A stretch of 33,548 nucleotides of DNA from Escherichia coli. GTDB taxonomy: Bacteria > Pseudomonadota > Gammaproteobacteria > Enterobacterales > Enterobacteriaceae. Position numbers and translations under genes: made by a program. This document shows positions 6,630 through 7,145 of the stretch, piece after piece; position 1 is the first letter of the stretch; each line of letters begins with the position of its first letter. The notes under the pieces are model-generated. The model was not told the origin of the DNA, did no database searches, and saw only the letters and a program-made list of their open reading frames with translations. The stretch lies in the NCBI RefSeq assembly GCF_003334815.1, contig NZ_QOWO01000040.1. One strand, written 5' to 3'.

Positions 6630-7145
6630 ATGAATATCCAGGAAGCATTAAATGTTTTTGGATTATCCGGCGAATTAACTGAAAAAGATATCAAAGCAGC
6701 ATACAGAAAAGCCGCTTTAAAATATCATCCAGATCGTAACCCGTTAGGGGCTGAACTGATGAAAGCGGTAAATGCAGCTTTTGATGTATTGATGGCAAAT
6801 ATTGATAAAATAAATCAGTTCCAGAGCACTGATGAACATGCACGATATAATTACGGTGATGACCTGGAAAAAGTATTAAACGTTCTTTCTGGTTTATCTG
6901 GTCTGGTATTTGAAGTGATAGGTAACTGGGTCTGGATTAGTGGAGAAACCATTACACATAAGGAAACTTTAAAAGAAATCGGGTGTAAATGGGCGGCAAA
7001 GAAAAAACAATGGTTTTATCGTCCAGACGAACATAAAAGTTACTGGAATCGTGAAGAACACACGATAGAAGAAATCCGCGCAAAATACGGTACAACCGGA
7101 CAGCGCAGGGCGACAGGGTGGCAACGCGTGGAAACCAGAGCGTAA
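6630..7145 (+). CDS. J-domain (DnaJ-like, HPD motif) protein with uncharacterised C-terminal domain
   Basis: N-terminal ...AYRKAALKYHPDRNP... is a canonical J-domain signature. Confidence 0.75.
   Translation: MNIQEALNVFGLSGELTEKDIKAAYRKAALKYHPDRNPLGAELMKAVNAAFDVLMANIDKINQFQSTDEHARYNYGDDLEKVLNVLSGLSGLVFEVIGNWVWISGETITHKETLKEIGCKWAAKKKQWFYRPDEHKSYWNREEHTIEEIRAKYGTTGQRRATGWQRVETRA

Follow-up and report, generated by a model that had tools for sequence, protein, structure and literature searches.

Plasmid context of the J-domain gene

The window analyzed here, a 33,548-nucleotide stretch of an Escherichia coli assembly (NZ_QOWO01000040.1), is an IncX4 plasmid with 98% identity to hundreds of IncX4 plasmids of about 33 kb found in Enterobacterales, and these matching plasmids are typed as conjugative, MOBP and MPF_T. 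A pi-like rep gene on the minus strand is followed by iterons and then by a series of small plus-strand genes headed by a gene for a J-domain protein (hereafter the J gene and J protein). Beyond these come hicAB, ddp1/taxA, the taxC relaxase gene and the type IV secretion genes. The features at the origin end of this arrangement are:

4394-5266, minus strand: pi-like Rep initiator (context); its full-length identity to R6K pi is 39% (E=1e-71)
5500-5587, no strand: iterons of a pi-type origin, four of 22 bp at 96% matches, with degenerate copies besides (context, outside the gene's own system)
6630-7145, plus strand: gene for the 171-amino-acid J-domain protein, stop codon included, with an ATG start (from the open reading frame list and the sequence)

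The iterons lie 1.04 kb upstream of the J gene, in agreement with a preliminary description of this DNA that had placed the gene about 1 kb from pi-type iterons. A Shine-Dalgarno sequence, AGGAG, is found at 6616-6620, 9 nt 5' of the ATG, and hundreds of IncX4 records annotate the gene as "J domain-containing protein".

A repeat upstream of the J gene

The region upstream of the J gene is occupied by one of two copies of a G+C-rich repeat, and the J gene is the first gene after copy 1. The stop codon is followed by further hairpins.

6205-6629, plus strand: repeat copy 1, 425 nt, structured and non-coding, G+C-rich, the upstream region of the J gene
8285-8708, plus strand: repeat copy 2, preceding the next gene block (ORF 8709-8981)
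7152-7170 and 7184-7218, plus strand: two G+C-rich hairpins right after the J-gene stop, possibly a partial terminator or RNA end

Only a 1-nt indel distinguishes the two copies, and each runs up to and into the ATG with which a gene block starts. Their GC fraction is 0.6, against 0.35 in the flanks. A long hairpin at 6213-6423 folds better than shuffled sequences (z about -3.3), and a promoter scan places a sigma70-like site, TTGCAA-17-TATTAT, at 6539-6567, 62 nt 5' of the J-gene ATG. The Shine-Dalgarno sequence of the J gene likewise falls inside copy 1. In complete E. coli genomes the repeat is plasmid-borne at 1608 of 1613 places, with two to seven copies per genome, and is found on IncX4 and IncI2 plasmids. 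It is unannotated in RefSeq, and it has no Rfam match at gathering thresholds.

We considered whether the repeat might be a single-strand promoter of the Frpo kind, and rejected this identity. Neither blastn nor nhmmer detected similarity between the repeat and 18 kb of the F leading region, Frpo included, and we recognized no hairpin in the repeat that would rebuild a -35/-10 duplex; transcription from single-stranded DNA is therefore unsupported. Inspected by eye, the sigma70-like site forms a local hairpin across its own spacer and does not pair with a distant arm. The repeat may instead serve as a promoter cassette, as a priming site or as a roadblock like the one described for F (bioRxiv 10.64898/2026.01.09.698686).

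The repeat also touches on an annotation in RefSeq. The record WP_073978418.1 bears the name "molecular chaperone DnaJ" and corresponds to an ORF within repeat copy 2 (8956-9315 in pIncX4_WCHEC1622, about 8345-8706 in the window). Its sequence equals the N-terminal 119 amino acids of a 292-amino-acid mis-called fusion (P0001) in which the repeat ORF is joined to the true J gene, and the name "DnaJ" on this record looks like an annotation artefact.

A type III J-domain protein

6630-6824, plus strand: J-domain, residues 1-65, four helices, with HPD at residues 33-35 (codons 6726-6734)

Residues 9-56 match the Pfam DnaJ family (PF00226, E=4.3e-11), and the family profile matches solved J-domains in the PDB, including that of E. 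coli DnaJ, over residues 1-65 only, with E-values down to 4e-14. In the AF2 model the J-domain helices span residues 3-10, 18-31, 40-56 and 58-63, with pLDDT values of 86-93 there. HPD is present in 13 of 13 aligned sequences, which range from Enterobacterales to Firmicutes and include Enterococcus, Clostridium and Bacillus. The canonical J-domain with the motif KYHPDRNP recognized in the preliminary description is thus confirmed by family match, invariant HPD and four-helix model.

Read directly, the numbering of the J protein is collinear with that of E. coli DnaJ as far as N37. K22, Y25, R26, K27, K31, H33-P34-D35 and R36 correspond to R22, Y25, K26, R27, K31, HPD and R36 of DnaJ, and all positions aligned with the DnaK-contacting residues of DnaJ are retained. 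The J protein shares the J fold and HPD with E. coli DnaJ, CbpA and DjlA, and its basic helix II residues (K22, R26, K27, K31 and R36) are placed as in DnaJ (1XBL, 5NRO). Unlike these three proteins, it has a shorter post-HPD loop, and a test for the type I/II DnaJ or CbpA architecture found the G/F region, the zinc-finger and the DnaJ C-terminal substrate-binding domains absent. NCBIfam models for DnaJ and CbpA score 20-41 bits within residues 1-64, against cut-offs of 338-619 bits. NCBIfam matches overall fall in the same range of 20-41 bits against cut-offs of 150-619, and end near residue 60 save for one weak TopJ stretch.

Between IncX4 and IncX3 copies of the gene, pN is 0.09 and pS is 0.74 with synonymous sites saturated, for a dN/dS of about 0.03 (about 0.01 in the J-domain and 0.04 in the C-terminal part). 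These ratios indicate that the J gene is subject to strong purifying selection. Judged by its architecture and conservation, the product is a specialized type III J-domain protein, encoded by a real and strongly conserved plasmid gene.

A C-terminal domain shared with other proteins

6825-7142, plus strand: C-terminal domain, residues 66-171, comprising a helix, a beta-hairpin, a helix, two strands and a conserved helix-strand with an "EIRxKYG" motif
6933-7025, plus strand: C-terminal domain core (residues 102-132, WISGETITHKETLKEIGCKWAAKKKQWFYRP), which shares homology with repeat units of the DUF5710-like kind

The C-terminal domain carries the conserved residues E95, G98, W100, W102, G105, T107, K115, W121, K125, W128 and G154. 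AF2, given a 65-sequence alignment, models it as an alpha/beta domain (pLDDT 86.3, pTM 0.73) on which five models agree, and the model has no interpretable fold relative in the PDB or the annotated AFDB. Structure prediction of this domain, which the preliminary description had put forward, thus yields a confident fold with no solved or named relative. At the sequence level, the C-terminal 100 amino acids match nothing in Pfam, NCBIfam or PADLOC at E<=0.001, and no relative is present in the PDB even at E<=10.

The same description had found no recognizable family in these 100 amino acids. This holds for the curated libraries and fails beyond them, where the domain belongs to an uncharacterized family with a weak, recurrent link to DUF5710. 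A HMMER scan of 1.84 billion cluster representatives with residues 66-171 returned 1701 hits at E<=0.001, 427 of them at E<=1e-10. Among the best 147 of the 1701 representatives, 99 combine a J-domain with the C-terminal domain (93 with HPD), 40 consist of the C-terminal domain alone and eight have other N-termini. Frameshifts in the gene calls may account for some of the proteins that have the C-terminal domain alone, and at least one of these looks like a split gene call. Word-indexed searches returned mostly fragments with the C-terminal domain alone and nothing with the primase repeats described below.

The link to DUF5710 (PF18974) comes from the repeat units of plasmid primases of the RepB-type/TraC-like kind. 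In one such protein (P0206) a RepB-type primase precedes a series of some eight short repeats, which Pfam weakly calls DUF5710, and hhalign aligns the family with these repeats over residues 102-132 with a probability of 97.3% and E=2e-11. Pfam detects DUF5710 in four of the 65 family members at E<=0.001 and in 23 at E<=0.1; the J protein of the window itself has no Pfam hit to DUF5710. Unlike the primase units, the shared core is embedded here in a fold of about 100 amino acids with an extra helix, a beta-hairpin and the C-terminal EIRxKYG element.

Other members attach the domain to different partners. In one (P0223) it is preceded by Peptidase_M78 (ImmA/IrrE), and a TrwC relaxase gene is located 1.5 kb downstream of the gene for this fusion. 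On metagenomic contigs (L012 2137-2853, L013 1889-2605) the fusion gene comes after an Xre-type HTH gene. Three more proteins (P0171, P0192 and P0216) join the domain to an uncharacterized N-domain, and P0185 is a tandem duplication. The N-terminus of P0225 was guessed to be nuclease-like, a guess that we dropped as the Pfam scan of this N-terminus gave no match. To judge by this range of partners, the C-terminal domain is a reusable module, found mostly with a J-domain and tied to conjugative DNA-processing contexts. We also considered non-specific DNA binding by the domain; with a pI of 7.85 it is not strongly basic, and this value lends the idea no support.

Position of the J gene relative to oriT

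10958-10966 (within 10696-11057), minus strand: candidate oriT nick core, CTATCCTG/C with the slash marking the nick, upstream of ddp1/taxA (11058-11561) and taxC (11565-12794)

The nick-core pattern alone is not significant in the window, with five occurrences found against 3.4 expected. In the intergenic region before ddp1/taxA, which is otherwise divergent, an 11-nt block, ATGCAGGATAG (reverse complement CTATCCTGCAT), is the sole long stretch that is invariant between IncX4 and IncX3. This block contains YATCCTG/Y, which we take to be the MOBP-type nick core consensus. From the consensus and the IncX4/IncX3 conservation, we infer that 10958-10966 on the minus strand is the oriT nick. The candidate core is flanked by inverted repeats, GACAATC with GATTGTC and a CAAATGTTAACATTTG palindrome.

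With the nick core on the minus strand, this strand would enter the recipient 5' end first, with transfer running down the coordinates from about 10959; hicBA would come first, the small genes next and the J gene after them. With oriT on one side and the vegetative origin on the other, the J gene is 3.8-4.3 kb from the candidate nick, measured along the T-strand. From 6630 to 10695 every gene is on the plus strand and points to ddp1/taxC. Because the J gene is transcribed towards oriT, the transferred minus strand would be its template. Given this nick, the J gene is on the first-transferred side of oriT and its coding strand is complementary to the T-strand, and ssb and psiB of F have the same orientation relative to oriT and traM. 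The T-strand-template orientation is reported for leading-region genes in a large survey (PMC11541004).

The J gene thus resembles the leading-region genes ssb, psiB and ardA (PMC11541004) in its first-transferred side, its T-strand template and its small co-oriented neighbors. It differs from them in having no Frpo-homologous promoter, and the survey discusses no J-domain family; in the portion of its tables that was searched, the sole such entry is a "DnaJ" family of five members.

A similar setting is found around relatives of the J gene. In Enterococcus faecalis it is followed by DUF3850, ssb, a thermonuclease gene, a RelB/YafQ pair, PcfM, a gene of the AcrIIA9 family and PcfJ. In Acinetobacter the genes for the coupling protein (T4CP) and a MobF relaxase follow 3 kb downstream in the same orientation, and in another proteobacterial element the relative stands among DUF3560, umuDC-like genes, DndB and HigB. 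In every locus examined, nearly all of its neighbors are small and co-oriented. Across these loci the neighbors are, by their family assignments, typical leading-region or anti-defense cargo (ssb, thermonuclease, AcrIIA9, toxin-antitoxin, DUF3560, umuDC-like, DndB and HigB). The recurring trait of the J gene, as the compared gene orders indicate, is its leading-side position among small co-oriented genes and not a pi-type origin.

Distribution and relation to pi-type origins

Using tblastn, we identified J-gene homologues in 2596 plasmid records, 2147 of which are predicted to be conjugative. IncI2 plasmids carry a copy that is 99.4% identical at the amino acid level, IncX3 plasmids one that is 84% identical and R6K one that is 65% identical. 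Two-domain copies with about 27-43% identity are present on plasmids of Vibrio, Acinetobacter (MOBF/MPF_F), E. faecalis, Clostridium and Bacillus, and a few phages carry relatives of the gene. The homology searches show that conjugative plasmids with unrelated replicon types are the main carriers of the C-terminal domain family. The R6K homologue (25104-25622) has the pi gene and the origin next to it on one side and ddp1/taxC on the other, and we found no study devoted to this homologue.

The preliminary description had proposed that a dedicated J-protein recruits DnaK to turn pi dimers into active monomers at the adjoining origin, aiding replication or the start in a new host. DnaK, DnaJ and GrpE activate pi and other iteron initiators in vitro, which counts for this idea, as does the location of the J gene beside a pi-type origin in IncX4, IncX3 and R6K. 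Against it, we know of no need of minimal gamma-ori replicons beyond pi and host factors. The gene and the initiator also dissociate in both directions. The RepA of the IncI2 plasmids has no similarity to pi, and the IncX1 plasmid pOLA52, which shares the backbone and has a Rep 40% identical to R6K pi, has no J-gene homologue, so the J gene does not occur solely with pi-type initiators. Its relatives span many replicon types and some phages, and the C-terminal domain is attached to a peptidase and to primases as well. The J gene adjoins the iterons here because this is a small plasmid whose leading region spans from oriT to the origin.

Published transposon data bear on the same question. High-density Tn5 mutagenesis of a near-identical IncX4 plasmid, pHNSHP23, gave insertions that were evenly spread except in pir, tsxB and mcr-1 (PMC8725589). 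This tolerance speaks against both the pi partnership and the suggestion that the J gene is needed for replication. Eighteen genes of pHNSHP23 were required for two rounds of transfer, namely ten pilX genes, taxA, taxB, taxC, tsxA, cds4 (which starts at about 2107 in the window), cds9, cds10/pixR and cds16, and the J gene is not among them (PMC8725589). The published primers for the cds16 deletion map to 7211-7252 and 7487-7525 in the window; cds16 is therefore the 180-amino-acid gene directly 3' of the J gene and not the J gene itself. It was flagged in the Tn5 screen, yet its single deletion caused a transfer drop of about 4-fold that was not significant (PMC8725589). As a separate observation, cds16 occupies 7250-7792 on the plus strand of the window and accompanies the J gene in IncX4, IncI2, IncX3 and R6K, and its product has no family match in any library, Pfam included.

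The J gene thus has no strong phenotype in the Tn5 data from laboratory E. coli, and it is therefore dispensable, within the sensitivity of the screen, for replication, maintenance and transfer from K-12 to K-12. Together with the dissociation in IncI2 and pOLA52, these data make a partnership dedicated to pi very unlikely. Judged by the refuting condition that the preliminary description had itself set, no effect of a deletion on replication or establishment, a strong requirement for the J gene in these processes in E. coli K-12 is likewise unlikely. The leading-region position does fit a part in establishment upon arrival in a new host, and it is the strong form of that role in K-12 that the Tn5 data count against. 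The earlier interpretation is, overall, partly supported: its establishment idea survives in a broader form, and its pi-specific mechanism is unsupported.

The transposon data also weigh on a donor-side function, in which the J protein would act as a co-chaperone that folds or unfolds relaxosome components or type IV secretion substrates before transfer. The J gene is always near relaxase and coupling-protein genes, as this would predict. However, it is outside the 18 transfer genes of the screen, and it is found amid establishment-type genes on the leading side, with the T-strand as its template, and not in the tra operons; we regard a donor-side function as highly improbable.

A proposed role in the recipient cell

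The reading that we favor, and consider probable although far from assured, is that the J protein is an accessory type III J-domain co-chaperone of the leading or establishment region of conjugative elements, bringing DnaK to one shared target. Going by the position of its gene, the protein would be made early in the recipient after transfer. Its HPD loop would stimulate the ATPase of the recipient's DnaK, and the C-terminal domain would act as an adaptor that brings DnaK to a target common to conjugative entry and not to one replicon. This target might be DNA, a nucleoprotein intermediate or a host protein; it would be neither pi nor any single relaxase family, because both vary among the carriers. 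The idea of an adaptor arises because the C-terminal domain is attached elsewhere to an ImmA/IrrE peptidase and to unknown N-domains, with its core repeated in a RepB-type primase. The function would be an accessory one: among laboratory E. coli strains the plasmid replicates and is transferred without it.

A bolder form of this proposal, which we hold to be doubtful, would make the C-terminal domain a universal "entry-site" adaptor that recognizes a structure or a host factor on the incoming single strand, in Gram-negative and Gram-positive recipients alike, with the J-domain, the metallopeptidase and the primases as its effectors. If true, it would point to an undescribed chaperone-driven remodeling step in establishment, for example one freeing a relaxase, SSB or a blocking host protein from the T-strand.

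The closest precedent for the function of the J protein is Rki (ORF057w) of the T4-like phage RB43. Rki is also a small type III protein of a mobile element, with an N-terminal J-domain bearing HPD and an uncharacterized C-terminal domain (PMC3486835). [quoted passage not shown] Hits to T4-like phages span residues 1-54 only, and the likeness to Rki would accordingly be confined to the J-domain. The target of Rki is sigma32 in E. coli, whereas the J family reaches plasmids of Gram-positive bacteria and has a C-terminal domain that forms a module of its own, reused elsewhere.

Rki is also the model for another explanation, in which the J protein is a hijacker or decoy of DnaK. Its J-domain would compete with DnaJ and rewire host proteostasis at entry, so that sigma32 is stabilized and heat-shock proteins rise, or DnaJ-DnaK-dependent immune sensors are blunted, and the C-terminal domain would tune this effect and deliver no client. 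Besides the precedent of a mobile-element J-protein that acts early through DnaK (PMC3486835), this explanation can draw on the anti-defense genes among the neighbors of the J gene and on the defense protein bNACHT25, which requires DnaJ-DnaK cochaperone activity (PMC12169576). A decoy or anti-defense role is possible because at least one defense protein monitors the activity of DnaJ-DnaK (PMC12169576). However, the similarity to J-proteins of T4-like phages is limited to residues 1-54, within the J-domain, and control of sigma32 by DnaK is proteobacterial, yet the two-domain architecture is kept in Firmicutes. A decoy would have no need of so conserved a C-terminal domain, one that is reused with non-J effectors. 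PADLOC matched neither the J gene nor its six downstream neighbors, and no known anti-defense family was matched. We therefore judge the decoy explanation unlikely, and continue to prefer a co-chaperone that directs DnaK to a shared target of conjugative entry.

J-domain proteins of mobile elements are already known; this family of leading-region co-chaperones is widespread, has gone unstudied and carries a new domain, proposed here as an adaptor. Our literature search on IncX4 DnaJ, on leading-region or plasmid-encoded J-domain proteins and on DUF5710 found no functional study. The J gene rides on plasmids that spread mcr-1 (IncX4 and IncI2) and blaNDM (IncX3), as well as on the classic R6K, and is routinely annotated as "DnaJ". 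If the DnaK of the recipient is indeed redirected minutes after entry, a chaperone step would be added to the establishment phase of conjugation, and there would be a first functional handle on the large C-terminal domain family and on DUF5710.

Other features of the window

The Rep gene is 873 nt long in the window (4394-5266, minus strand) and 1008 nt long (4529-5536) in pIncX4_WCHEC1622. The origin region differs in length as well, with shifted offsets, although the two plasmids are otherwise 98% identical. Two pir variants have been reported for IncX4 (bioRxiv 10.1101/2023.11.23.568506), and the difference between 873 and 1008 nt fits these variants.

Two of the small plus-strand genes downstream of the J gene have products with library matches. 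The one at 8027-8254 encodes 75 amino acids with an Xre/MqsA-like helix-turn-helix (weak NCBIfam and PHROG hits), and the one at 9054-9353 encodes 99 amino acids, of which the C-terminal 40 match phrog_2061 (E=2e-10). At 207-299 on the minus strand, Rfam detects the AgrB antisense RNA with 55.6 bits, above the gathering threshold of 40, and this match suggests a DinQ-like type I toxin-antitoxin locus, comparable to dqlB as annotated in the IncX1 plasmid pOLA52.
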